A stretch of DNA of 32,000 nucleotides from Microcystis aeruginosa NIES-843 (GTDB taxonomy: Bacteria > Cyanobacteriota > Cyanobacteriia > Cyanobacteriales > Microcystaceae), in contig NC_010296.1 of assembly GCF_000010625.1 (NCBI RefSeq), positions 3,660,001-3,692,000 of the forward strand, written 5' to 3'. The position numbers and the translations under genes are program-made. Under the pieces are notes generated by a model. The model was given only the letters and a program-made list of their open reading frames with translations. It was not told where the DNA came from and made no database searches. Shown in pieces: positions 3,074-29,233 of this stretch. Every line of letters starts with the position of its first letter. The first letter of the stretch is position 1.

Positions 3074-4291
3074 AGACCTCTTGCATAATTTTTTTATGGT
3101 ATAATATAAGGTTTTGCTTTTTTCTCAATTCTTAGATTGAAGTGGAAAAAAGAATAAAATGTGATCTTAGGTCAGGAAATCATCTATAATTTTGCTATGT
3201 TTATTAGCAAAATTATGGATTATCAAAACTTATCAGATGAACAATTCAAACGCCGTTTCGGTGTGTATAAACAAACCTATAGAAAGATGGTAGAATCAGT
3301 AAAAAGTGTTGAAGCCGACTCTAATTCACCATCTAAAAGGGGACCGAAACCTAAACTATCTATAGAAGAACAAGTTTTAGTAACGTTAGAATATTGGCGA
3401 GAATATAGAACATATTTTCACATTGGTACAAGCTGGGAACTATCAGAATCAACTATATGTCGGATTGTAAATAAGACGGAAAAAATGCTTTTACAATCGG
3501 GAAACTTCCGTTTAAAAGGAAAAAAAGCTTTACTCAATCAAGCAGAGATACCGGTCATAACGGTAATGGATGTAACGGAAACTCCCATTGAACGCCCCCA
3601 AAAGAAACAGAAAGATTTTTTTTCGGGTAAAAGAGGTTATCATACTTTAAAATCCCAATTAGTAGCTGATCAAAATACAAAGGAAATTATCTGTGTCTTT
3701 TGTGGGAAAGGTAGAGGTCATGATTTTAGTTTATTTAAAAAAAGTCGAGTTCGTTTTCATCCTTTAACTACCAGCATAGAAGACAGTGGTTATCAGGGAA
3801 TAGCTGCATACCATAGTAATAGTTATACACCGAAAAAGAAATCGAAAAATAGAAAATTAACAGAGTTAGAAAAAGAGTATAACAAGGCTTTAGCCAAAGA
3901 AAGGATTATCATTGAACCTATAAATAGGAAACTCAAAATCTTTAAAATCTTATCCTGTAAATATCGGAATCGTCGTCGAAGATATAGTTTAAGAGTTAAC
4001 TTGTTGGCGGCTATTTATAACTGTGAGTTAGGGATAGGTATAGCAGCTTCTTAAAAGTTGCCTAAAGATTAATCAAGTCAAGGAGAATTTATTCTCAATT
4101 TTTATAATTGAGATAGTTTGTGCCGCTTAAATAAAGAGGTTTTGATAACCAAATTAAAGCAGCTCTAAAGAGTTTTGAGTTAAAAGTTAAACTTCAAGTT
4201 TTCATTCAGGACAAATGTACTGATTAACTAATTTTTTGGGGAAAATTAGTTAACCCATCATTATAACATATAATTAATTTGCAAGAGTTCT
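3074..4291 (+). mobile_element. IS5-family insertion sequence (PIF/Harbinger-like DDE transposase), 1218 bp
   Basis: The terminal inverted repeats are AGACCTCTTGCA (3074-3085) and the reverse complement of 4280-4291, AGAACTCTTGCA. A 3-bp direct duplication AAT lies at 3071-3073 and 4292-4294; bases 3070/4291 and 3074/4295 differ, so the duplication is exactly 3 bp. One transposase ORF lies inside. Confidence 0.85.
3215..4054 (+). CDS. IS5-family DDE transposase
   Basis: N-terminal HTH region (LSIEEQVLVTLEYWREYRTYFHIGTSWELSESTICR). Candidate DDE residues sit in VMDVTE, EDSGYQG and IIEPINRKLK. The ATG at 3215 (MDYQNL) is preferred over the GTG at 3161 used by the ORF track. Confidence 0.8.
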   Translation: MDYQNLSDEQFKRRFGVYKQTYRKMVESVKSVEADSNSPSKRGPKPKLSIEEQVLVTLEYWREYRTYFHIGTSWELSESTICRIVNKTEKMLLQSGNFRLKGKKALLNQAEIPVITVMDVTETPIERPQKKQKDFFSGKRGYHTLKSQLVADQNTKEIICVFCGKGRGHDFSLFKKSRVRFHPLTTSIEDSGYQGIAAYHSNSYTPKKKSKNRKLTELEKEYNKALAKERIIIEPINRKLKIFKILSCKYRNRRRRYSLRVNLLAAIYNCELGIGIAAS

Positions 4292-7020: not shown

Positions 7021-7665
7021 TTAAGCAAAACCCAAAGGTTGAAACTGAGTATCATTGATAATTTTAACCGTTTCCCCCGACTGCTTAATCACAAACAAAC
7101 CGCGCCGATAGGCATAGACATCTATCCCCTGATCAATTTCAATGCCTGCCACTGCCCCATAAACCCGAAACTCTCGAAATTGGGGGAAAGCAACCTTAAA
7201 TCGCTGTAATCGGCTGACAAAATCATCTACATCATCCCTCGACAGTCGAGATTTACATTCCACAGCCACCAACTCGCTCCCATTCACCGCCACAATATCA
7301 ATCTCCATTGCCGCCCCAGAACGCTTACTTTTCAAGCGACTCATCGTTTGGGTGACATCAATGCCCCGTTCCTGAAATAAACGCACAACCGCAGGCTCTA
7401 CCATTTCTTCAACGAATCTGCCCCAGCGTGTTGTTAGGTTATTAACAGCTTTGGTCGTTTCTTGTACCTGTTTTTTTAATTCTTCCATCGTGCGATTAGC
7501 TTCCTCTCTGCGGCGATCAGCTTCGGCACTGCGGCGATCAGCTTCGGCACTGCGGCGATCGGCTTCGGCACTGCGGCGATCAGCTTCCTTTTGAAACTCG
7601 GCAAATTGGGCCTCAGTTCTTTCAAATAACTTGTAAATATCGGCGATCGTTACAGCGTCTGACAT
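7021..7665 (-). CDS. PD-(D/E)XK nuclease-fold protein with N-terminal coiled coil (DUF3782-like cyanobacterial family)
   Basis: The C-terminal half has a D...E-x-K arrangement (MEIDIVAVNGSELVAVECKS). The N-terminal half is a charged helix with EADRRSA repeats. The ATG at 7665 (MSDAV) or the one at 7701 could be the start. Confidence 0.6.
   Translation of the reverse strand: MSDAVTIADIYKLFERTEAQFAEFQKEADRRSAEADRRSAEADRRSAEADRRREEANRTMEELKKQVQETTKAVNNLTTRWGRFVEEMVEPAVVRLFQERGIDVTQTMSRLKSKRSGAAMEIDIVAVNGSELVAVECKSRLSRDDVDDFVSRLQRFKVAFPQFREFRVYGAVAGIEIDQGIDVYAYRRGLFVIKQSGETVKIINDTQFQPLGFA
7508..7587. repeat. 21-bp tandem repeat x3.8 inside the CDS (encodes EADRRSA heptads)
   Basis: The unit ctgcggcgatcagcttcggca starts at 7508, 7529, 7550 (one a-to-g change) and 7571 (partial). 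Confidence 0.95.
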
Positions 7666-8137
7666 AGGAAGATTCTTCAAGCTTGAGGAGTCTAGTCCCA
7701 TTCTAGCGACTTGGCCCAGAAAAAATGTCCCTAGCTTCTCATCCGTGTTTTTTCAATCAATTATTGACTATCAACTAATCAGCGATCGCAGTTCAAGGGG
7801 AAGGGGTCAAAGGTCAAAAGGCGATCGCGTTTTTAATGGATAATAGGCAATTGACAATGGATAATTATCAACCATAGCTCCTGCGGCCATGGGCTACTAT
7901 TTTAATCATCAGGAAGAAATCAACCTGGAAATCACCCAAGAATGGGATCAGGTACAAATTAGCATAACGCGAATAGCTAAATCACCTTTTTACAACGGGA
8001 GGAAAGAAGTGACTTTTTCCCCGCCCTTCCCCCGAATGCACCCCGTAACTGATATAAGTAGAGATGTAGGTCTATAACCAAAATTGCCGCATCAGTTCGG
8101 TTAGGTGACTGTTTTTCGCTTGTCTAGGAGGGTAGAT

Positions 8138-10102
8138 ATGCTCAACGAATTAATTTATGAAGGATTAGGTTTAAGTGCTGTTTTCGGAGGACTATTCCTC
8201 TGGTCGCGCTCTGGTCTCGTCAGCAAAAATACCGCCCTTTTAGCCGCACAAGCGCAATTACAGCAAAGTAGCTCAGATTTGTTGGCTCAAGTCAAGGGTT
8301 TAGACGTGGCGCAATCAGAGTTAAAAGACGAAAATCAGCAGCTGCACGCCAAAATAATTCACATAGAACAACATTCCGCCCAATTACAGCACAAAGCTAC
8401 GGATTTAGAAAATTCTCTCCAGTCCCTCCAGCAAGCTGTCCATATAGGTGAGGGTGAAATCGAACACCTGAAAACCACCGCTAAGGAAATAGAAGCGGAG
8501 AAAGCTGGTCTGATGGAGCAATTAGAGGGAGAAAAAGCCCAAATTACTAGCCTAGAGGCACAGATTCAAACTTTAGAGCAGCAAAAAGGTGAAATTAACC
8601 GTCAATTTGATTTGACCAAAAAACAGACCACCTCTCTCTATAGTCAAATTCAGACCCTAGAACAGGATAAAACTCTCTTACAGCAAGAGCTAGAAAAAGC
8701 CGAGGAATTAAGGGCAAAAGTGGCCGATTTAGAGTATAAAAACCAAGAATTAAGCGATTTAGCCGCTCAAATTCCCAGCTTGCAAGGTCAAATTCAAACC
8801 TTAGAACAGAATCTGGCTCACCAAACAGAACATTATGAGCGAGGACAGCAAGAAATAGCCAGCTTACAGGGTCAAATTACCGGGTTAGAACAGGAAAAAA
8901 AGTCTCTCAGCGAAGATTTAGCCGCAAGTCAAACTCGATCGCTCTCTTTAGGCCAAGAATGCGACAATTTAACTATAAAACTCCAAGAAACCGTCGCTCA
9001 AGTGACAGCCATAACCGCCGAAAAGGACAGTCTCGGTGCTCATCTCGAAGCAGCTAAACTGGAGTTACAAGCTTTAGCGGCCCAGAAAGGGGAATTATCG
9101 GCAGAATTAAGCACTGCTGCCGAAAAAATTGCTAATTTAGAAGGGCAATTACAGGAATTAACCCAGTTACCGCAACAATTGGCCGATTCTCAGGCAACAA
9201 TTGCTAATTTAGAAGGGCAATTACAGGAATTAACCCAGTTACCGCAACAATTGGCTGATTCTCAGGCAAAAATTGCTGATTTAGAAGGGCAATTACAGGA
9301 ATTAACCCAGTTACCGCAACAATTGGCTGATTCTCAGGCAACAATTGCTAATTTAGAAGGGCAATTACAGGAATTAACCCAGTTACCGCAACAGCTAGAA
9401 ACCTATCGGGAAAACATTTCTAATTTAGAGATTCAACTACACCAGTTAAGTTCCGAAAAAGACCAATTAGAAACCACAACTTCCCGTCATATCGAGGAAT
9501 TAAGCCAACAAAATCGCCAACTAACTCAAGATTTAGAAGCCCAAAAAACGGTAGCTAAAGCTTTAGATAAGGAAAAAATTAAGTTTGAGGGTGAGTTAGC
9601 AACTAAGCAAAAAGAAATCGCCGCTTTAGTGGTTAAAATTCAAAACCTACAACAAGAAAGAGACGATTTCTCTCGACAAACTGCTCCCATTATTACTAAT
9701 GAACCAGAAGCAATTATTAGTGAAACTCCTGTAGTAGAAGAGCCGGAAACCACCCCGGTGATTGCCGAGGAAACTCCGGTAGTAGCAGCAGAAAAAATCC
9801 TGGTTGCCGATACGAGTTTAGAAGTGCAACCCGCAGCGGAGATAGTCCAAACGAGTCAAGAATCCGCCGAAAATACCCTAAGGGGAAAAAGCGTAGTTAT
9901 ACTAGGAACCTTCAGCAAAATCAGTCGCGAGAAAGCGAAATCATTGATTATTAATGTCGGTGGTACTGTTACCAGTTCCCCCAGTGCGAACACTGATTAT
10001 ATTCTCCTCGGTAAAGCCCCCGGTGAGAAACTCAAAAAGGCTCAAAAATTAGGCATAAAAACCCTTTCAGAAGCCCAATTTCTGCAAATGGTAGAATCCT
10101 AA
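8138..10102 (+). CDS. Membrane-anchored long coiled-coil protein with C-terminal BRCT domain
   Basis: GGAGGG precedes the ATG at 8138; the ORF-track start at 8105 is a GTG. The N-terminal hydrophobic helix is LGLSAVFGGLFLW. About 480 aa are Q/E/L-rich heptad sequence. The C-terminus, GKSVVILGTFSKISREKAKSLIINVGGTVTSSPSANTDYILLGKAPGEKLKKAQKLGIKTLSEAQF, resembles the LigA-type BRCT domain. Confidence 0.7.
   Translation: MLNELIYEGLGLSAVFGGLFLWSRSGLVSKNTALLAAQAQLQQSSSDLLAQVKGLDVAQSELKDENQQLHAKIIHIEQHSAQLQHKATDLENSLQSLQQAVHIGEGEIEHLKTTAKEIEAEKAGLMEQLEGEKAQITSLEAQIQTLEQQKGEINRQFDLTKKQTTSLYSQIQTLEQDKTLLQQELEKAEELRAKVADLEYKNQELSDLAAQIPSLQGQIQTLEQNLAHQTEHYERGQQEIASLQGQITGLEQEKKSLSEDLAASQTRSLSLGQECDNLTIKLQETVAQVTAITAEKDSLGAHLEAAKLELQALAAQKGELSAELSTAAEKIANLEGQLQELTQLPQQLADSQATIANLEGQLQELTQLPQQLADSQAKIADLEGQLQELTQLPQQLADSQATIANLEGQLQELTQLPQQLETYRENISNLEIQLHQLSSEKDQLETTTSRHIEELSQQNRQLTQDLEAQKTVAKALDKEKIKFEGELATKQKEIAALVVKIQNLQQERDDFSRQTAPIITNEPEAIISETPVVEEPETTPVIAEETPVVAAEKILVADTSLEVQPAAEIVQTSQESAENTLRGKSVVILGTFSKISREKAKSLIINVGGTVTSSPSANTDYILLGKAPGEKLKKAQKLGIKTLSEAQFLQMVES
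9128..9393 (+). repeat. 72-bp near-perfect tandem repeat x3.7 within the coiled-coil CDS
   Basis: Units start at 9128, 9200, 9272 and 9344. Each encodes IANLEGQLQELTQLPQQLADSQAT, with only a few substitutions (ggcc/ggct, acaattgctaat/aaaattgctgat). Confidence 0.95.
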
Positions 10103-10104
10103 AA

Positions 10105-10158
10105 CAGTTATCAGTTATCAGTTATCAGTTATCAGTTATCAGTTATCAGTTATCAGTT
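10105..10158. repeat. Heptamer microsatellite (CAGTTAT)n, STRR-like
   Basis: About 7.5 perfect CAGTTAT units lie immediately after the BRCT gene stop. Confidence 0.95.
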
Positions 10159-10192
10159 CACTGTTTACTGATTACTGTTCACTGAAAATACA

Positions 10193-10262
10193 CCCCACTT
10201 CCCCACTTCCCCACTTCCCCACTTCCCCACTTCCCCACTTCCCCACTTCCCCACTTCCCCAC
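10193..10262. repeat. Octamer microsatellite (CCCCACTT)n; the complement (GGGGAAGT)n matches the G-quadruplex pattern
   Basis: About 8.7 perfect units end 27 bp before the ATG at 10289. Confidence 0.95.
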
Positions 10263-11574: not shown

Positions 11575-13077
11575 CTATTCTTCCTCTGACTCTGGAGAAC
11601 TGACCCAAGGAGTAGAAGATTCGGCAGCTTTCGGGAAAGAAAAAGATTTTTTTGGAGGAGAAGGCAATAATTCCAATTGTCGATTACCGGTTTTATAGCT
11701 AGTTTTATTTTTCTGCTCTCCCCGTCGTCGTTGGGAGGTTTTTTCCTCCGTGGTATTTTCGGCTATCACTTCATACAAAATCGCCCGTTTATCCTCTTGT
11801 TGCCCTTTTCTTAACACCCGTCCTAAACGCTGAATATATTCCCTGGTGGAACCGGTTCCCGATAAAATAATCGCGATGCGCGCTTCCGGCACATCAACCC
11901 CTTCATTAAGAACATGGGAAGTCACCAGAATTTTGTATTCTCCCTGACGAAAACGGGTCAGGATTTCATGGCGTTCTTTCACGGGAGTTTGATGGGTTAT
12001 GGCAGGTATTAAAAAGCTCTCGGAAATGCGGTAAACTGTGGCATTATCGTTGGTAAAAATTAAAATTGGTTCCGGATGGTGTTCACAGATTAACTCGGCT
12101 AAAACCCGCAATTTTCCCTGGGTTCCGGAGGATATTTCCTTCGACTCCCGGTGGGCCAACATGGCCCGGCGCCCTTCGCTACTTCTGGCACTAATCATGA
12201 CAAAATTTTGCCAACCATCTAAACCGGACAAACTGAGATTATTTCTTCTTAAAAAATCATTGCGAATTTTAATTGCTTCTTGATATTTTTCCTGTTCTTT
12301 GGCAGATAGTTTCACTTTAATTTGAATTATTTCATGATCCGCTAGGGCTTTTCCTGACAAGTCTTGGGGACTTTTTTGATAAACAATTGCACCAATAAGA
12401 TAATCTAAATCCTGATGACTACCATCACCGCGATCCGGTGTTGCTGTTAAGCCTAAACGATAGGGTGCGATCGAATCTTCCGCTATTTTCCGAAAGAAAT
12501 CCGATGGTAAATGATGACATTCATCAAAAATCAAAAAAGCGTAACGATTGCCAAGAGTTTCTGAATAAATTGCCGCACTTTGATAGGTGGCGATTAAAAT
12601 AGCACTATTATCCTTAGAACCTCCCCCTAATAATCCCACCTCGGCATCGGGAAAAGCCGCCAACATCTGGGCATACCATTGGTGCATTAAATCAATAGTC
12701 GGCACGATAATTAAGGTACTGCGGGGAGTCGATTGTAGAGCTAATTGGGCAAGATAGGTTTTGCCGGCAGCGGTGGGAAGGACAATGACACCCCTTCTCT
12801 GGGATTTTTTCCAAGCGATTAACGCTTCCGTTTGGTGGGGGTAGGGTTCCCGTTCAAAACTGGCAATTAATTCTAAATTGTTGAAAGCTTTTGCTTCATC
12901 TTGGAAGTTAATGCCCTCCTCCTGTAGAGTTTCCACGAGAGGACGATAATGAATGGCCAAAATGCGAAATCTTTCAATACGATCATCCCAAGTGGCAAAA
13001 TCTAGCCATTTTTTCCCCTTTGGTGGTGGATGGAGAATTAAGGTTCCTCGCTCATATTTGAGGGTGGGTAAGCGCAT
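11575..13077 (-). CDS. XPB/Ssl2 (ERCC3/Rad25)-like SF2 DNA helicase
   Basis: Walker A is LPTAAGKT and motif II is FDECHH. TATP and the helicase C-terminal motifs (VTSHVLNEGVDVPE, QRLGRVLR) are present. The N-terminal region is about 70 aa and the C-terminal tail is low-complexity. Confidence 0.75.
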   Translation of the reverse strand: MRLPTLKYERGTLILHPPPKGKKWLDFATWDDRIERFRILAIHYRPLVETLQEEGINFQDEAKAFNNLELIASFEREPYPHQTEALIAWKKSQRRGVIVLPTAAGKTYLAQLALQSTPRSTLIIVPTIDLMHQWYAQMLAAFPDAEVGLLGGGSKDNSAILIATYQSAAIYSETLGNRYAFLIFDECHHLPSDFFRKIAEDSIAPYRLGLTATPDRGDGSHQDLDYLIGAIVYQKSPQDLSGKALADHEIIQIKVKLSAKEQEKYQEAIKIRNDFLRRNNLSLSGLDGWQNFVMISARSSEGRRAMLAHRESKEISSGTQGKLRVLAELICEHHPEPILIFTNDNATVYRISESFLIPAITHQTPVKERHEILTRFRQGEYKILVTSHVLNEGVDVPEARIAIILSGTGSTREYIQRLGRVLRKGQQEDKRAILYEVIAENTTEEKTSQRRRGEQKNKTSYKTGNRQLELLPSPPKKSFSFPKAAESSTPWVSSPESEEE

Positions 13078-13080
13078 TTT

Positions 13081-13300
13081 TCAGTTATCAGTAAACAGTA
13101 AACAGTTATCAGTAAACCGAACGTAGGTTGGGTTGAAGCATGAAACCCAACGCCCGCTCATGTTACGCTACCGCTAACCCATCCTACAAATAATTGTGCC
13201 TCCCTACTTATCAGTAAACAGTAAACAGTAAACAGTAAACAGTATAAGTGAACTGAAAACTTACATCTGATAACTGATAACTGATAACTGATAACTGATT
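13081..13300. repeat. Composite intergenic repeat block: heptamer tracts (CAGTTAT/CAGTAAA and the inverse CTGATAA) flanking a GGTTGGGTT hairpin element
   Basis: cagttatcagtaaacagtaaac lies at 13082-13117. gtaggttgggttgaagcatgaaacccaac lies near 13124-13152. (cagtaaa)n lies at 13210-13243. (ctgataa)n at 13268-13300 is the reverse complement of the left tract. Confidence 0.85.
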
Positions 13301-24888: not shown

Positions 24889-25007
24889 TCTTCGACAATC
24901 TCTTATCAGTTATCAGTTATCAGTTATCAGTTATCAGTTATCAGTTATCAGCTATCAGTTATCAGTGATTAATTCAATCATAGTCGATGATAGGTGATGC
25001 GTGAGGA

Positions 25008-25108
25008 CTAAATCTGGATGTTGTCAAAATTTCTCTTGACAAAAGCCTCTTGACATGATACTATATTCATAATGGAAAATCTGTGCGCCTACAAACCCTA
25101 TTTTCAAG
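25008..25108 (+). promoter_or_regulatory. Repeat core 1: sigma70-type promoter plus operator palindrome plus conserved leader (upstream of hicBA)
   Basis: The -35 TTGACA is at 25036-25041, followed by a 17-nt spacer and the -10 TACTAT at 25059-25064. The palindrome TTGTCAA-N8-TTGACAA spans 25021-25042. Confidence 0.7.
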
Positions 25109-25166
25109 TCTCAATAATCGCCAATAAAAGCTTAGATAGCGATAATTTTTTTAGGGATTGAGAACC

Positions 25167-25379
25167 ATGAACCATCAAAGAGAGTTTTATGTTGTCATTG
25201 AACGAGATAAGGATGGATATTATGTTGGGGAAGTTCCTCAACTTCGGGGTTGTTACAGTCAAGGGGAAACGATTGATGAATTGATGAAGAATATCAGGGA
25301 AGTGATTGAACTTTGCTTGGAAGATGACAATCCTGAAGATGTGTCGGAGTTTGTTGGAATTGAAAAGCTGTCTATCTGA
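25167..25379 (+). CDS. hicB: HicB-family antitoxin
   Basis: REFYVVIERDKDGYYVGEVPQLRGCYSQGETIDELMKNIREVIELCLE is the typical HicB/UPF0150 N-terminal domain. The ATG at 25167 is preferred over the TTG at 25158. Confidence 0.85.
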   Translation: MNHQREFYVVIERDKDGYYVGEVPQLRGCYSQGETIDELMKNIREVIELCLEDDNPEDVSEFVGIEKLSI

Positions 25380-25603
25380 TGCCAAAATTACCGATATTAA
25401 CCGGTGATGAAGTTATCAAAGCTTTAACTAAAATCGGGTTTCAATCTATCCGACAAAAAGGAAGTCATCTGCGCTTAAAACATGAAGATGGAAGAGTTGT
25501 CACCGTACCGGTTCATCGGGAGAAAACTGTCGGGAAAGGATTACTCTTAAAAATTTTGCGCGATGCTGAACTGACACAAGAAGAATTTATTCGTCTGCTG
25601 TAA
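25379..25603 (+). CDS. hicA: HicA-family mRNA-interferase toxin
   Basis: 74 aa. LTGDEVIKALTKIGFQSIRQKGSHLRLKHEDGRVVTVPVH is the HicA (YcfA-like) signature. Its start overlaps the hicB stop (TGATG). Confidence 0.88.
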   Translation: MPKLPILTGDEVIKALTKIGFQSIRQKGSHLRLKHEDGRVVTVPVHREKTVGKGLLLKILRDAELTQEEFIRLL

Positions 25604-25703
25604 TTCCCATCTTGATTGAAGCTTAATGTCCCCTTGCTAAATATAGTACAAAAAATCTGGCTTTGTCAGATCAGAAAAAGATGCAATCCAATCTTTCTGC
25701 TAC

Positions 25704-25805
25704 GTTTTTCTGGATTTTGTCAAAATTTCTCTTGACAAAGGCGACTTGACATGATACTATATTCATAATGGAAAATCCGTGCGCTTGCAGACCCTAGTTT
25801 TCAAG
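25704..25805 (+). promoter_or_regulatory. Repeat core 2
   Basis: The -35 is at 25732-25737, followed by a 17-nt spacer and the -10 TACTAT at 25755-25760. The core ends 17 bp before the stop codon of the oppositely oriented relE-like gene. Confidence 0.7.
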
Positions 25806-25822
25806 AATTTTCAAGGTCTAGT

Positions 25823-26077
25823 TTATTGCCCATAATGGGTTTTAGTACGATGAATATAGATTAACTTCTGTTCATCATTAATGGTGTAAAGTATTCTATC
25901 TTGATAACTTAAGCGAATTGAATAGAAACCCGTTAAATCTCCTACTAATTTTTTACCACTATAGGGAGAAATACTCAGGGTATCTTGGATAATTGACTTC
26001 AGTTTTTTCTTAAGTTTAGGGGTTAGCTTATCAACATCTTTTTTTGCTTCTTTGGTAAATCTGACTTCATAAACCAT
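25823..26077 (-). CDS. RelE/ParE-superfamily toxin
   Basis: 84 aa. YEVRFTKEAKKDVDKL...GDLTGFYSIRLSYQDRILYTINDEQKLIYIHRTKTHY matches the RelE/StbE pattern. Confidence 0.85.
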   Translation of the reverse strand: MVYEVRFTKEAKKDVDKLTPKLKKKLKSIIQDTLSISPYSGKKLVGDLTGFYSIRLSYQDRILYTINDEQKLIYIHRTKTHYGQ

Positions 26078-26340
26078 TAATCAATGTCTCCCAAGACTTC
26101 CTCGAAAGAATAGGTTTCATTTTCATTAATTTGCTGTAGAGATAGTTGTAAGCTTTCTCTTAAATCGGGAATAGAGAGTAATTCGATGGTTTCTTGTAAA
26201 CTTTCATAGTTTTTTTGAGAAATCAAAATTACAGAATCCTCCTGATTCTCAATGGCATAAATTTTGTTATCTTCCGTAACCGATTTAACGAGACTTGGTA
26301 AATCGGTTTGAGCATCGGCGATTTTAATTTTTTTGATCAT
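26077..26340 (-). CDS. Phd/YefM-type antitoxin
   Basis: 87 aa with the N-terminal DAQTDLPSLVKSV...VILISQKNYESLQETIELLS pattern. It overlaps the toxin start by 1 nt. Confidence 0.75.
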   Translation of the reverse strand: MIKKIKIADAQTDLPSLVKSVTEDNKIYAIENQEDSVILISQKNYESLQETIELLSIPDLRESLQLSLQQINENETYSFEEVLGDID

Positions 26341-26512
26341 AATTAATCCTTTTTTTGATGATGAAATAATAAAAATTATTGTAGGGATTTAACAATCTCA
26401 CCTAATCACACTCCAGACAGCATCCTCCTATAATTATCCATCATTGTAGTCATCAGTGATTAATTCAATCATAGTCGATGATAGGTGATGCGTTACTGGA
26501 CTAGGTAATAGG

Positions 26513-26542
26513 TGTAGGGGTAATTCATGAATTACCCCTACA
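26513..26542. repeat. Perfect palindromic element TGTAGGGGTAATTCATGAATTACCCCTACA
   Basis: 30 nt and perfectly self-complementary, of the GTAGGGG...CCCCTAC type also seen at 24820-24888. Confidence 0.9.
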
Positions 26543-26547
26543 ATAAC

Positions 26548-26650
26548 GTTTTTGTGGATGTTGTTAAAATTTCTCTTGACAAAGGCGACTTGACATGATA
26601 CTATATACATAATGCAAAATCCGTGCGCCTACAGACCCTATTTTCCAAAG
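26548..26650 (+). promoter_or_regulatory. Repeat core 3
   Basis: The -35 is at 26576-26581, followed by a 17-nt spacer and the -10 TACTAT at 26599-26604. The left palindrome arm has one change (TTGTTAA). Confidence 0.7.
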
Positions 26651-26671
26651 CATTCAAACTCTATCTTAATT

Positions 26672-26815
26672 CTACTTGCCAGAGTTGCGACAACATAGTT
26701 TTATATTCTCCATAATCGTTTGAGTATGGGGATGATTTTCCCCTAATCCTTCCCTGAAAATATTAATCGCTTCTAGATGGTTCCGCTTCTGTGTACCTGT
26801 CTTGGGAATGGTACA
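26672..26815 (-). pseudogene. Remnant of the C-terminus of a TPR-repeat protein
   Basis: The minus strand reads ...NHLEAINIFREGLGENHPHTQTIMENIKLCCRNSGK*, with a frameshifted ...RYTEAEP upstream. This is the TPR_12-type consensus, and there is no start codon. Confidence 0.45.
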
Positions 26816-26821
26816 ATAGTC

Positions 26822-27235
26822 CTAAATTATTGAGAGATACCAATTTTCATAACTAAGATTGGGAATATTTTGAAAATGCTTAATGTTAGCTGTAATCAGA
26901 GTATAATCACAATAAATAGCAGTCGCAGCAATAAACAAATCAATCGGGGTAATTAGTTGTCCTTTTATTCTAAGATTAACGTATATTTGAGTAGCTATAT
27001 CACTAATTTCACGATCATAACCAATTACTTCACTGACTTCTACAAGACGTTCAAATTGTTGTTGTTGATTTCGTGCATCTTTATACAATAAACCACTTTT
27101 AATCTCGTAATAGGTAAAGATTGAAAACGATATATAAGTATAGTGTTGTCGATAGATGCGGAATTGTTCAATTACTGCGGGATTGCCTCGTAAAAAATAA
27201 GAGAGGATATTGGTATCAAGTAATGCTTGTTTCAT
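26822..27235 (-). CDS. vapC: PIN-domain toxin VapC
   Basis: 137 aa. The N-terminus is LLDTNILSY (first acidic residue), and the PIN fold pattern continues through IDLFIAATAIYCDYTLITANIKHF. Confidence 0.85.
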   Translation of the reverse strand: MKQALLDTNILSYFLRGNPAVIEQFRIYRQHYTYISFSIFTYYEIKSGLLYKDARNQQQQFERLVEVSEVIGYDREISDIATQIYVNLRIKGQLITPIDLFIAATAIYCDYTLITANIKHFQNIPNLSYENWYLSII

Positions 27236-27468
27236 AAGTCATTTATCCGTCTTAAATCGAGTTGACGATTAGCTTCTGCTTCTTCGACAATCTCTTGCAT
27301 AGTATTTTCTATATCTGCTGCCATACCAGCAAATTCCATAAAGTCAACGTCTGGATGTTTTGTTTTTATAGATTGGACAAAATGCAGGATTTCCGGCAGC
27401 AGAGAAATGGGAGTTGTTTCAATTTCTTTAATAAGTTGTTCTTTGAGTGTCATAGCTTTATCAGTCAT
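27232..27468 (-). CDS. VapB-like antitoxin
   Basis: 78 aa, with a 4-nt overlap onto vapC. The start could instead be the second Met at 27453, because the first codons fall inside the heptamer tract. Confidence 0.65.
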   Translation of the reverse strand: MTDKAMTLKEQLIKEIETTPISLLPEILHFVQSIKTKHPDVDFMEFAGMAADIENTMQEIVEEAEANRQLDLRRINDL

Positions 27469-27533
27469 CAGTTATCAGTATCAGTTATCAGTGGTTAATT
27501 CAATCATAGTCAATGATAGGTGATGCGTTACGA

Positions 27534-27637
27534 CTAAATCTGGATGTTGTCAAAATTTCTCTTGACAAAGGCGACTTGACAGGATACTGTATTCATAATG
27601 GGAAATCCGTGCGCCTACGAACCCTCTTTTCCAACGG
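27534..27637 (+). promoter_or_regulatory. Repeat core 4 (weakened -10)
   Basis: The -35 is at 27562-27567, followed by a 17-nt spacer and a -10 of TACTGT at 27585-27590. Confidence 0.6.
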
Positions 27638-27840
27638 TCTTAACTATGATTGATGTGATTATTTGATTGACTATGATTCGTTCATTCAATCAATCAATCT
27701 TCATCTCTAATCCACTCTTAACTAGCTCCCTAATCACAGTCCATCAGATGATTACATCAACCACAGTCGATGGTGGTGGGTTAGGACGGATTGTTAGCTT
27801 GAAGTTAAAGCGGAAATTTCTGCCGTCTAACTACATTTTA

Positions 27841-27943
27841 CTAAATCTGGATGTTGTCAAAATTTCTCTTGACAAAGGCGACTTGACATGATATTATATT
27901 CATAATGGGAAATCCGTGCGCCTACAGACCCTCTTTTCCAACG
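27841..27943 (+). promoter_or_regulatory. Repeat core 5
   Basis: The -35 is at 27869-27874, followed by a 17-nt spacer and a -10 of TATTAT at 27892-27897. Confidence 0.7.
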
Positions 27944-28116
27944 CTCTTAACTATGATTGGTTCATTCAATCCATCTTCATCTCTAATCCACTCTTAACTA
28001 GCTCCCTAATCACAGTCCATCAGATGATTACATCAACCACAGTCGATGGTGGTGCGTGAGGACGGATTGTTAGCTTGAAGTTAAAGCGGAAATTTTGGCC
28101 GTCTAACTAGGTTTTA

Positions 28117-28219
28117 CTAAATCTGGATGTTGTCAAAATTTCTCTTGACAAAGGCGACTTGACATGATACTATATTTATAATGGAAAATCCGTGCGCCTA
28201 CAGACCCTCTTTTCCAATG
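28117..28219 (+). promoter_or_regulatory. Repeat core 6
   Basis: The -35 is at 28145-28150, followed by a 17-nt spacer and the -10 TACTAT at 28168-28173. Confidence 0.7.
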
Positions 28220-28286
28220 GTCTTAACTATGATTGATGTGATTATGTGATTGACTAGGATTGGTTCATTCAATCAATCTTCATCTC

Positions 28287-29233
28287 GGTGGTGATTCTGT
28301 AGTAGTGATGGCGGCTTAATCCTTTGCCAGGTGTGCATTGTAGTCATGGATAAAATACCAAACAGCCCCAACGTGATTCTCCATTTTTTTAGAGAAAGAT
28401 AGACTCTCTCTCACCAACCGAGAAATCCTTTGTCGAAAGGTATTATTTAATCTTTCAATAGGATTAGTTTGACCAGTTTCTTTCCCGACTGGTCGATGAC
28501 GTTTACTGGGAATTACTGTCTTATATGACTCCCAAAAGTCTGTGTAAGCAACTGCACATTGTCGGTAAACACCTGGTAAACTAGCCCAAAGTTTTTTGGC
28601 TGATTGACGACTCCTATCTCCGCGCATAGCAACCAATAATTTCCCTTGTATTTCTATCAATTAACCGCCAAATATAGACCTTTATCGTCTTAGAAAAAAC
28701 AAAAGACCACATTTCATCACATTCTCTAACCAATTTACCTTTTGGTTTGTCCGAAACCTTTATTTGACGGGGGACAGCCGCCAGTTTATTGTTGACATAA
28801 TTTTGTAACCATGACCAACTTACCCCTGTTACTCTAGCAATTCCTCGTCAGGAAATTCGTTCGAGCAAGAGTTTATCAATTAATTGTTTGGTTTCGTCAG
28901 AGACGGTTTTATTAGTGGGATTGATCACCAACTGACGACCACATTCTTTACCTTGACGTTTGGGTTTTCCATTATGAATAGAACCATTCTTGATCGTATG
29001 GTGAGAACCACAATTAGGACAGGGGAACGGAGGTGAAGGGGGTACTTTGTTCGGTGCTAGACTGATATTTCAGTAAGCCAGACAGGAGCCAGAAAAAGAT
29101 ATTTATCAGAAAAGTCATGATCAAGCTAGAGGTTTAAAGACTGATTCGAGCCAATTATTTTTATTAATAAATATTTTACACAATTCATACCAGGTAAGCA
29201 AGAGAGCTACGCCACTACTACCGAATCATTACC
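28287..29233 (-). mobile_element. IS1-family insertion sequence, decayed copy
   Basis: The terminal inverted repeats are GGTGGTGATTCTGTAGTAGTGATGGCG (28287 onward) and the reverse complement of 29207-29233, GGTAATGATTCGGTAGTAGTGGCG. The flanking 9-mers (cttcatctc and tcttttcgc) differ, so no target duplication is present. Confidence 0.75.
28316..29030 (-). pseudogene. IS1-family transposase (InsA zinc finger plus InsB core) with an in-frame stop and a frameshift
   Basis: The N-terminus is CPNCGSHHTIKNGSIHNGKPKRQGKECGRQ. An in-frame TGA lies near 28870 (ERIS*RGIARVTGVS). The frame breaks near 28650 (..REIIGCYARR versus ..AMRGDRSRQSAKKLW). The C-terminal part, YTDFWESY...TNPIERLNNTFRQRISRLVRESLSFSKK, is IS1-type. 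Confidence 0.75.

Follow-up and report, generated by a model that had tools for sequence, protein, structure and literature searches.

A repeat of about 93 bp with a predicted sigma-70 promoter at the junctions of toxin-antitoxin cassette arrays in Microcystis

The repeat and its cassettes in Microcystis aeruginosa

The window analyzed here, a 32-kb stretch (32,000 nucleotides) of the Microcystis aeruginosa NIES-843 genome, contains exactly six copies of a repeat core, all on the plus strand, as determined by a profile search with nhmmer; the original prediction had counted the same six. An alignment of the copies spans about 105 nt, and the boundaries of homology delimit a core of about 93 nt that runs from TCTGGATG to TTTTC. 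Copy 1 (25013–25105) is located upstream of a hicB-hicA cassette (25167–25603, plus strand; hicB at 25167–25379 and hicA at 25379–25603), which fills the interval between cores 1 and 2 and is the sole cassette oriented in sense with the core promoter. Copy 2 (25709–25802) adjoins the 3' end of a convergent gene for a ParE/RelE-like toxin (25823–26077), which together with a Phd/YefM antitoxin gene (26077–26340) constitutes the minus-strand cassette between cores 2 and 3 (25823–26340). Copy 3 (26553–26645) is followed by a minus-strand pseudogene (26672–26776) that encodes a C-terminal fragment of an NB-ARC/TPR protein, the TPR tail ending in EAINIFREGLGENHPHTQTIMENIKLCCRNSGK at the stop codon, and then by a convergent cassette (26822–27468, minus strand) composed of a PIN-domain VapC gene (26822–27235) and the gene of a 78-aa antitoxin (27232–27468); both lie between cores 3 and 4.

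The remaining copies, all on the plus strand, are associated with gene-less units of 276–307 nt at cores 4, 5 and 6. Copy 4 (27539–27631) and copy 5 (27846–27938) each head such a unit, that of copy 5 being about 276 nt long, and the spacers of these two units (27632–27845 and 27939–28121, within 27632–28121) display no ORF family, terminator or significant fold. The array closes with copy 6 (28122–28214). Downstream of it lies the remnant of an IS1-family transposase gene (28316–28660, minus strand), which ends the array in this strain, whereas an NB-ARC/TPR gene is found at this place in other strains. A companion repeat, U1, occurs on the plus strand upstream of cores at 27483–27531, 24957–25005 and 26448–26496; it lies in front of many cores, after the 5' end of antitoxin genes encoded on the minus strand.

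When one genome per species was scanned with the leader pattern, 20 loci were obtained, of which 18 belong to Microcystis, and a scan of metagenomes with the promoter pattern added 75 further loci. A profile search over all loci, which cover 8–14 kb each, located 223 core copies in 94 Microcystis loci, with up to eight cores on one contig and mixed copy orientation in none of the 94. The spacing between copies clusters at 220–350 nt for gene-less units, about 625 nt for hicBA, 815–850 nt for relE/phd and 1000–1260 nt for PIN pairs. The conservation statistics rest on 196 aligned copies, in which a conserved block of about 80 nt extends from AAWTTTCTC, just 5' of the −35 hexamer, to TTTTC at about +34. 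BLAST searches of phage and plasmid collections with the core gave no match, the core was absent from viral contigs in two pattern scans, and Rfam returned no match for the window at gathering thresholds and only noise for the array at E ≤ 10. The element is not described in the literature that was searched on Microcystis transcription start sites and dRNA-seq, toxin-antitoxin (TA) arrays, mobile promoters, small RNAs and integrons. On balance, the core appears to be an intergenic module of about 93 bp that is specific to Microcystis. A separate look-up with HicB for transcript-derived contigs matched metagenome contigs only, and these break at the repeat.

Two other identities were considered and rejected. 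The core does not resemble a miniature inverted-repeat transposable element or insertion sequence: TCTGGATG and TTTTC at its two ends do not form inverted repeats, its flanks are not duplicated, the orientation is uniform within every locus, and the copies are clustered at few sites. An open reading frame across the core, MIGDALRLNLDVVKFSLDKGDLTGYYIHNGKSVRLQTLFSN, is interrupted by an in-frame TGA in about 80% of copies, and a test for period-3 variation was not significant (p = 0.12), with several common polymorphisms being synonymous in this frame. The encoded peptide matches only 13 hypothetical ORFs of Microcystis, which are spurious calls on the repeat.

Promoter, leader and palindrome of the core

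The pattern TTGACA-N17-TAYTRT has six plus-strand matches in the window (at 25036, 25732, 26576, 27562, 27869 and 28145), where 0.02 are expected. These correspond to the six cores and bear out the original reading of their hexamers, namely TTGACA, 17 nt and TACTAT, with TACTGT in core 4 and TATTAT in core 5. The predicted promoter of copy 1 (25036–25064, plus strand) comprises the −35 hexamer TTGACA (25036–25041), a 17-nt spacer, a TG dinucleotide (25056–25057) and the −10 hexamer TACTAT (25059–25064), and places the start of transcription at about 25071–25072. The TG, one base 5' of the −10 hexamer, constitutes an extended −10 element that had escaped the original prediction; it is found in the window copies with the exception of core 4, in which it is replaced by GG. 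A second TTGACA, located 8 nt after the first (25050–25055 in copy 1), is also present as predicted.

The promoter elements are strongly conserved among the 196 aligned copies. TTGACA is kept at the −35 position in 194 of them, the spacing between the hexamers is exactly 17 nt, and the three bases before the −10 hexamer are TGA in 157 copies and GGA in 37. The −10 hexamer itself is TACTAT in 78 copies, TATTAT in 67 and CATTAT in 27, with rarer variants besides. Its second and sixth positions (A2 and T6) are near-invariant, its first position is changed from T to C in a subfamily of 30 copies that retains the TG extension, and its third is divided about equally between C and T, as expected for a working promoter. 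Three positions of the spacer vary at 0.40–0.42. Promoter-critical positions are less variable than the remainder of the core (Mann-Whitney p = 0.014), and about 99% of copies, gene-less units included, retain intact hexamers. Four copies with a spoiled −10 hexamer (TGCTAT) have gained TATAAT 8 nt downstream, which is anecdotal because the four represent a single lineage.

Because the metagenome loci had been retrieved with the promoter pattern, the test was repeated on 42 copies that had been ascertained by means of the leader. Of these, 41 have TTGACA; T1, A2 and T6 of the −10 hexamer are invariant, and the sites that vary are once more spacer positions together with positions 3 and 5 of the −10 hexamer. 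The conservation is thus not an artefact of the way in which copies were found. The second TTGACA is present in 196 of 196 copies, partly owing to how copies were found, and together with the discriminator and ATGGAAAATCC it is as invariant as the hexamers, although a sigma-70 promoter does not need these segments. Additional constraints or homogenization by gene conversion therefore contribute as well.

At the level of sequence, these data support the assignment of the core to the sigma-70-type promoters (type 1, SigA-like, in cyanobacteria), as the original prediction of an unusually perfect sigma-70 promoter had proposed, and the promoter is probably active in the rightward direction. When the minus strand was read by eye, the left arm of the palindrome described below had no consistent −10 partner, and the only match of a promoter scan on that strand is TTAACA-16-TATTGT in core 3. 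The minus-strand RNA of the core folds with a z-score of −2.4 into a hairpin that is not followed by a U-tract.

The predicted initial transcribed region of copy 1 (25071–25105, plus strand) reads AATGGAAAATCC-N-TGCG...TTTTC. The leader AATGGAAAATCCGTGCGCCTACAGACCCTMTTTTC is conserved across the six window copies, and in the promoter-ascertained set the first 34 or so nucleotides of the predicted transcript are conserved in blocks, consisting of AATGGAAAATCC, TGCG and scattered C and T residues up to TTTT, so that the original proposal of a conserved leader holds. The hairpin proposed for it fares less well. The GGAAAA/TTTTCC complementarity is present, but its stability is that of shuffled sequence (z −0.8 to +1.1), and no secondary structure of the region is supported. 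Neither this helix nor a 5'-terminal AUGGA/UCCGU helix displays a single compensatory change, and the paired fraction equals that of shuffles; the covariation expected of the hairpin was thus not found.

A strong predicted promoter followed by a block-conserved leader in each unit could also signify that each core forms the 5' portion of a gene for a small regulatory RNA, tandemly arrayed like NsiR1, with the 34-nt leader as the functional RNA. The frequent tandem gene-less units, which occur in runs of up to four, would agree with such a gene, as would the contig with eight cores. Against it, no terminator-like site was found downstream of any core, and the entire transcript of a gene-less unit has no more folding stability than shuffled sequence (z −0.49). 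Beyond +34 the sequence differs by cassette type, and within the window no trans target complementary to the leader was detected. Together with the absence of covariation, of leader stability and of an Rfam match, these results make a small RNA gene quite unlikely.

The −35 hexamer of copy 1 is contained in the right arm of a 7-8-7 inverted repeat, TTGTCAA-aatttctc-TTGACAA (25021–25042). The palindrome exists as originally described, and it is perfect in five of the six window cores (0.03 expected), with one mismatch in core 3, where the left arm is TTGTTAA. Across the genus, by contrast, conservation within the element is lowest in the left arm. Of 196 copies, 72 have an exact left arm; it reads TTGTTAA in 65 and is absent or replaced in 59, and it is missing in the whole TGAAAAA subfamily and in the first copies beside the permease gene of site C (see below). 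The mean variability of the left arm is 0.21, as compared to 0.001 for the right arm, which overlaps the promoter. An alignment of many copies thus upholds the −35 and −10 elements but not the left half of the palindrome, which is therefore no defining part of the core.

The geometry of the palindrome had been taken as that of an operator for a dimeric helix-turn-helix (HTH) repressor, to be bound by a local antitoxin. Apart from its overlap with the −35 hexamer in most window copies, this reading could invoke the second TTGACA downstream as a third half-site. The poor conservation of the left arm, and its loss from a subfamily, leave the claim unsupported. In addition, cores are also found at sites that lack nearby TA genes, and the local HicB, a protein of 70 aa, matches HicB-like/UPF0150 families only, with no DNA-binding family detected in it by Pfam. 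We regard an operator function of this type as very unlikely.

The core as a recombining junction between cassettes throughout Microcystis

The ORFs around all core copies were clustered and mapped. The core is the junction in co-oriented arrays that comprise hicBA, relE/phd, two PIN/antitoxin pairs, parE and gene-less units; this context, which is not visible from one window, was no part of the original prediction. The arrays reside at three recurrent chromosomal sites, and one genome has a further, fourth site. Site A, to which the window belongs, lies downstream of histone-deacetylase-like and FrhB-like genes. Site B lies downstream of epimerase-like and DUF1611-like genes, and site C downstream of the genes for a 445-aa protein and a 321-aa permease-like protein, the neighbours of sites B and C being named from sequence only. 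Arrays often end at the 3' end of a convergent NB-ARC/TPR gene, identified by Pfam, for the product of which PADLOC returned a generic TPR match only. Some strains carry a single core devoid of cassettes at sites B and C.

At site A, strains differ in which cassettes they carry and in what order. The array of the window contains hicBA, relE-phd, vapCB and three gene-less units. Three others, located at site A or unplaced, consist of relE-phd, hicBA and gene-less units (L047), of phd, hicBA, relE, PIN141-antitoxin and vapCB (L069), and of vapCB, hicBA and relE (L099). The cassettes hicBA, relE/phd and vapCB share 95–99% DNA identity between sites A, B and C and keep a constant orientation with respect to the core, and the flank class on the upstream side of the core places hardly any restriction on that of the downstream side. 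The near-free combination of flanks and the shuffled cassettes identify the core as the junction of the arrays. The genes phd and relE, both PIN genes and their antitoxins, parE and NB-ARC/TPR lie on the minus strand, and only hicBA lies on the plus strand. Counted by independent cassette types, this amounts to about five on the minus strand versus one on the plus strand, a bias that is suggestive but statistically not significant.

The cores themselves are mosaics, which is indicative of homologous recombination. Every pair of adjacent common polymorphisms displays all four gametes, 89 haplotypes occur among 154 copies, and the linkage of internal polymorphisms to either flank is only weak. 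After correction for bias, columns 19–24 of the alignment track the upstream flank, while those from column 28 onward do not and weakly track the downstream flank. Two types of truncated junction start at columns of about 25 and 34, which are the edges of the 8-nt spacer of the palindrome; other left boundaries are located at columns 12 and 14, one of which is a microhomology inside vapB. The pattern is compatible with a preferred crossover in the palindrome, with linkage being lost between columns 24 and 28.

A crossover at this position would also be expected if the core were a site-specific recombination site, an analogue of attC at which the 7-8-7 repeat serves an unlinked tyrosine or serine recombinase and the promoter is secondary. 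Simple recombinase core sites consist of short arms around an asymmetric spacer, and the 7-bp arms and asymmetric 8-bp spacer of the repeat match this geometry. The co-orientation of the arrays, the fixed orientation of cassettes, exchange between sites, the end of upstream-flank linkage between columns 24 and 28 and the two independent truncated junctions at the spacer edges all speak in its favour. The left arm, however, is exact in a minority of copies only and is missing in a subfamily that forms arrays, and breakpoints occur along the whole core, with four gametes at every adjacent pair and further left boundaries outside the palindrome. No recombinase gene is conserved in the flanks: among those of the 94 loci, judged by recurrence and with Pfam applied to part of them, only housekeeping and NB-ARC/TPR clusters recur. 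Pfam detected no recombinase family among the 20 proteins of the window except the IS1 transposase remnant. A regular-expression search of 24900–28400 revealed no pair of attC R'' (RYYYAAC) and R' (GTTRRRY) boxes on either strand, and no element-spanning fold of single-stranded DNA is supported (z −1.5 to 0). A dedicated site of this kind is thus unlikely, and homologous recombination or gene conversion between cores, the simplest account, is also the most likely one when compared to a dedicated integrase.

Ongoing gene conversion, to which the mosaic cores attest, could also have kept alike a set of copies of which only one class matters. The core would then be the promoter and 5' UTR of hicBA, with all other copies as non-functional by-products. 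The cassette hicBA is indeed the only one in sense, and because its HicB matches no DNA-binding family, an external promoter for hicBA makes sense. In many strains, nevertheless, the permease and DUF1611-like sites keep single cores that have an intact promoter but no hicBA, the hexamers are intact in gene-less units too, and variation is concentrated at promoter-tolerant positions. The restriction of function to hicBA is accordingly improbable, to about the same degree as a small RNA gene.

The explanation that we favour, with moderate confidence, is that the core combines a promoter module with a recombination junction. According to this explanation, the core would carry a strong housekeeping-type promoter (TTGACA, 17-bp spacer, TG and TAYTAT) that fires rightward, and the transcript would start about 7 nt after the −10 hexamer, with its first 34 nt or so conserved. 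The co-oriented cores would provide the shared homology at which TA cassettes and gene-less units stack into arrays. It would most likely be homologous recombination or gene conversion between cores, and not a dedicated integrase, that duplicates, deletes and reorders the cassettes and carries them among the chromosomal sites, of which there are at least three. Since cassettes keep a fixed orientation to the core, hicB-hicA would be read in sense and the other TA operons met head-on. The promoter would face the toxin end of these operons and the 3' end of the flanking NB-ARC/TPR gene, where antisense or colliding transcription could damp or insulate the convergent genes. That transcription from the core both drives hicBA, the HicB of which lacks a detectable DNA-binding domain, and opposes or insulates the convergent TA operons and NB-ARC/TPR is a tentative part of the model, and we consider it rather doubtful.

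Relation to known systems and significance

Sedentary chromosomal integrons, such as the Vibrio superintegron with its VCR/attC sites, hold TA cassettes and promoter-bearing gene-less cassettes (PMC11014356, PMC13108822). The Microcystis arrays share with them the co-oriented repeats of about 100 nt between small cassettes, many of which are TA pairs with promoters of their own, the frequent gene-less units, a strain-variable order and content of cassettes, and internal promoters that, in sense or antisense, may modulate neighbouring cassettes. By contrast, no integrase was detected beside the Microcystis arrays, attC R''/R' boxes are lacking, as is an imperfect palindrome that spans the element, and a consensus promoter lies within the repeat itself. 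Their breakpoints are spread through the repeat, pointing to homologous recombination, and they occupy several sites, often against an NB-ARC/TPR gene, instead of a position behind attI/Pc. The core arrays thus work most like a sedentary chromosomal integron, yet they do not pass for integrons, as neither an integrase nor attC was found.

A more elaborate proposal regards the arrays as an integrase-less, integron-like platform for TA and defence genes. In such a platform the core would be the attachment site and the 7-8-7 repeat the crossover for an unlinked recombinase, while an antisense RNA with a conserved 5' handle would check captured toxins, and the 3' ends of NB-ARC/TPR (STAND) genes would serve as anchors for the whole. 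We judge this combination as improbable as the site-specific reading on which it builds, although site-specific recombination with an antisense handle would be considerably more interesting if true.

The preferred account of a promoter-bearing homology module has parallels in other elements. In the minimal mobile elements of Neisseria, cassettes are swapped by homologous recombination in conserved flanks after transformation. As in Microcystis, alternative cassettes occupy one chromosomal slot by means of shared flanking homology and no dedicated recombinase. The homology in Microcystis, however, is a dedicated intergenic repeat of about 93 bp in place of housekeeping flanks, which makes stacking into arrays and movement between sites possible. 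NsiR1 of heterocystous cyanobacteria (Nostocales) is a tandem set of short, terminated and structured small RNAs with a regulated, non-consensus promoter. It resembles the Microcystis units in the head-to-tail arrangement of intergenic units, each with its own promoter, in a cyanobacterium; the Microcystis units differ in that they display no terminator or supported structure and enclose protein-coding cassettes. The Correia elements of Neisseria, dispersed repeats that carry promoters, likewise place a functional-looking promoter beside unrelated genes within a short intergenic repeat. Unlike these, the core has neither terminal inverted repeats nor target-site duplications, and its copies are clustered at few sites with a strictly uniform orientation per cluster.

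The genomes of bloom-forming Microcystis are plastic and contain very large repertoires of toxin-antitoxin and defence genes. For the genetics of the genus, the core represents a strong promoter candidate, and it may serve as a marker for the strain typing of bloom populations. If its promoter is active, captured TA operons and the neighbouring STAND-type gene would receive convergent transcription from a common, possibly co-regulated source, which, if true, would constitute an unusual layer of control over toxins. A dedicated homology module of about 93 bp would offer a cyanobacterium a simple, recombinase-free route to integron-like cassette dynamics, by which cassettes could be stacked, exchanged among strains and copied from one chromosomal site to another.

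Small insertions upstream of the cores

Core 3 of the window, one of the ~93-nt promoter-bearing repeats that join the toxin-antitoxin cassettes of the array, is immediately preceded by an insertion at 26513–26542, which constitutes a perfect 30-bp palindrome (TGTAGGGGTAATTCA followed by TGAATTACCCCTACA). The same palindromic insertion lies ahead of 61 of 160 cores at other loci, and its insertion point in these 61 is constant, adjoining TCTGGATG. The insertion resembles a small mobile or REP-like palindromic element that favours a particular target. An insert of ~55 nt (GACGGATTGTTAGCTTGAAGTTAAAGCGGAAATTT..CCGTC...) is found between U1, the upstream companion repeat, and cores 5 and 6 (27786–27839 and 28062–28115, respectively), and also upstream of 28 cores elsewhere. 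This insert is a second small element, with an insertion point common to that of the palindrome.

Altered predicted promoters and a common antitoxin N-terminus

The predicted -10 box of the core is spoiled (TGCTAT) in four copies that precede phd, at the core-bearing loci L083, L091, L093 and L056, and each of these copies displays a new TATAAT 8 nt downstream. The TATAAT may compensate for the spoiled -10, but the four copies represent one lineage.

The antitoxins encoded at 27232–27468 of the window and at loci L004, L012 and L010 contain a common N-terminal motif, M..KE.L..EIE..P..LL.E.L.F, and none of them matched a Pfam family. The motif is common to the partners of three different toxins, namely two PIN proteins and one ParE.

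Tandem repeats in the window

Tandem heptanucleotide repeats, TTATCAG and variants thereof, are located at 24889–24974, 10080–10193, 13071–13128 and 27460–27495. Among these sites are the array's left edge and the 5' end of the ORF for the vapB-like antitoxin. A 72-nt unit, detected as overlapping 144-nt units, is present in five tandem copies at 9052–9483 within ORF 8105–10102, whose 665-aa product is a coiled-coil protein carrying a BRCT domain at its C-terminus. Another tandem repeat, of 21 nt (GCGATCAGCTTCGGCACTGCG; 7492–7596), seen as four overlapping 42-nt copies at a spacing of 21 nt, lies within the minus-strand ORF 7021–7701, a DUF3782 protein gene.

Array ends and internal junctions

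Most arrays are closed by intact NB-ARC/TPR genes that encode proteins of up to 1016 aa. In NIES-843, the place that this gene occupies in other strains is taken by the remnant of a degraded IS1-family transposase, which is present as frameshifted pieces on the minus strand at the array end (28316–29036). C-terminal fragments of NB-ARC/TPR proteins are found directly after many cores within the arrays, both in the window (26672–26776, minus strand) and at many other loci, implying that the core and the 3' end of the gene were copied together. A further type of junction, upstream class U5, occurs in L011 (core at 4037) and its relatives, where a truncated vapB coding sequence is fused to the core. 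The fusion point is a microhomology between GTCTGGATGTTTTG in vapB and TCTGGATGTTGTC at the left end of the core, and this sequence arrangement is evidence for illegitimate or microhomology-mediated deletion within the arrays.
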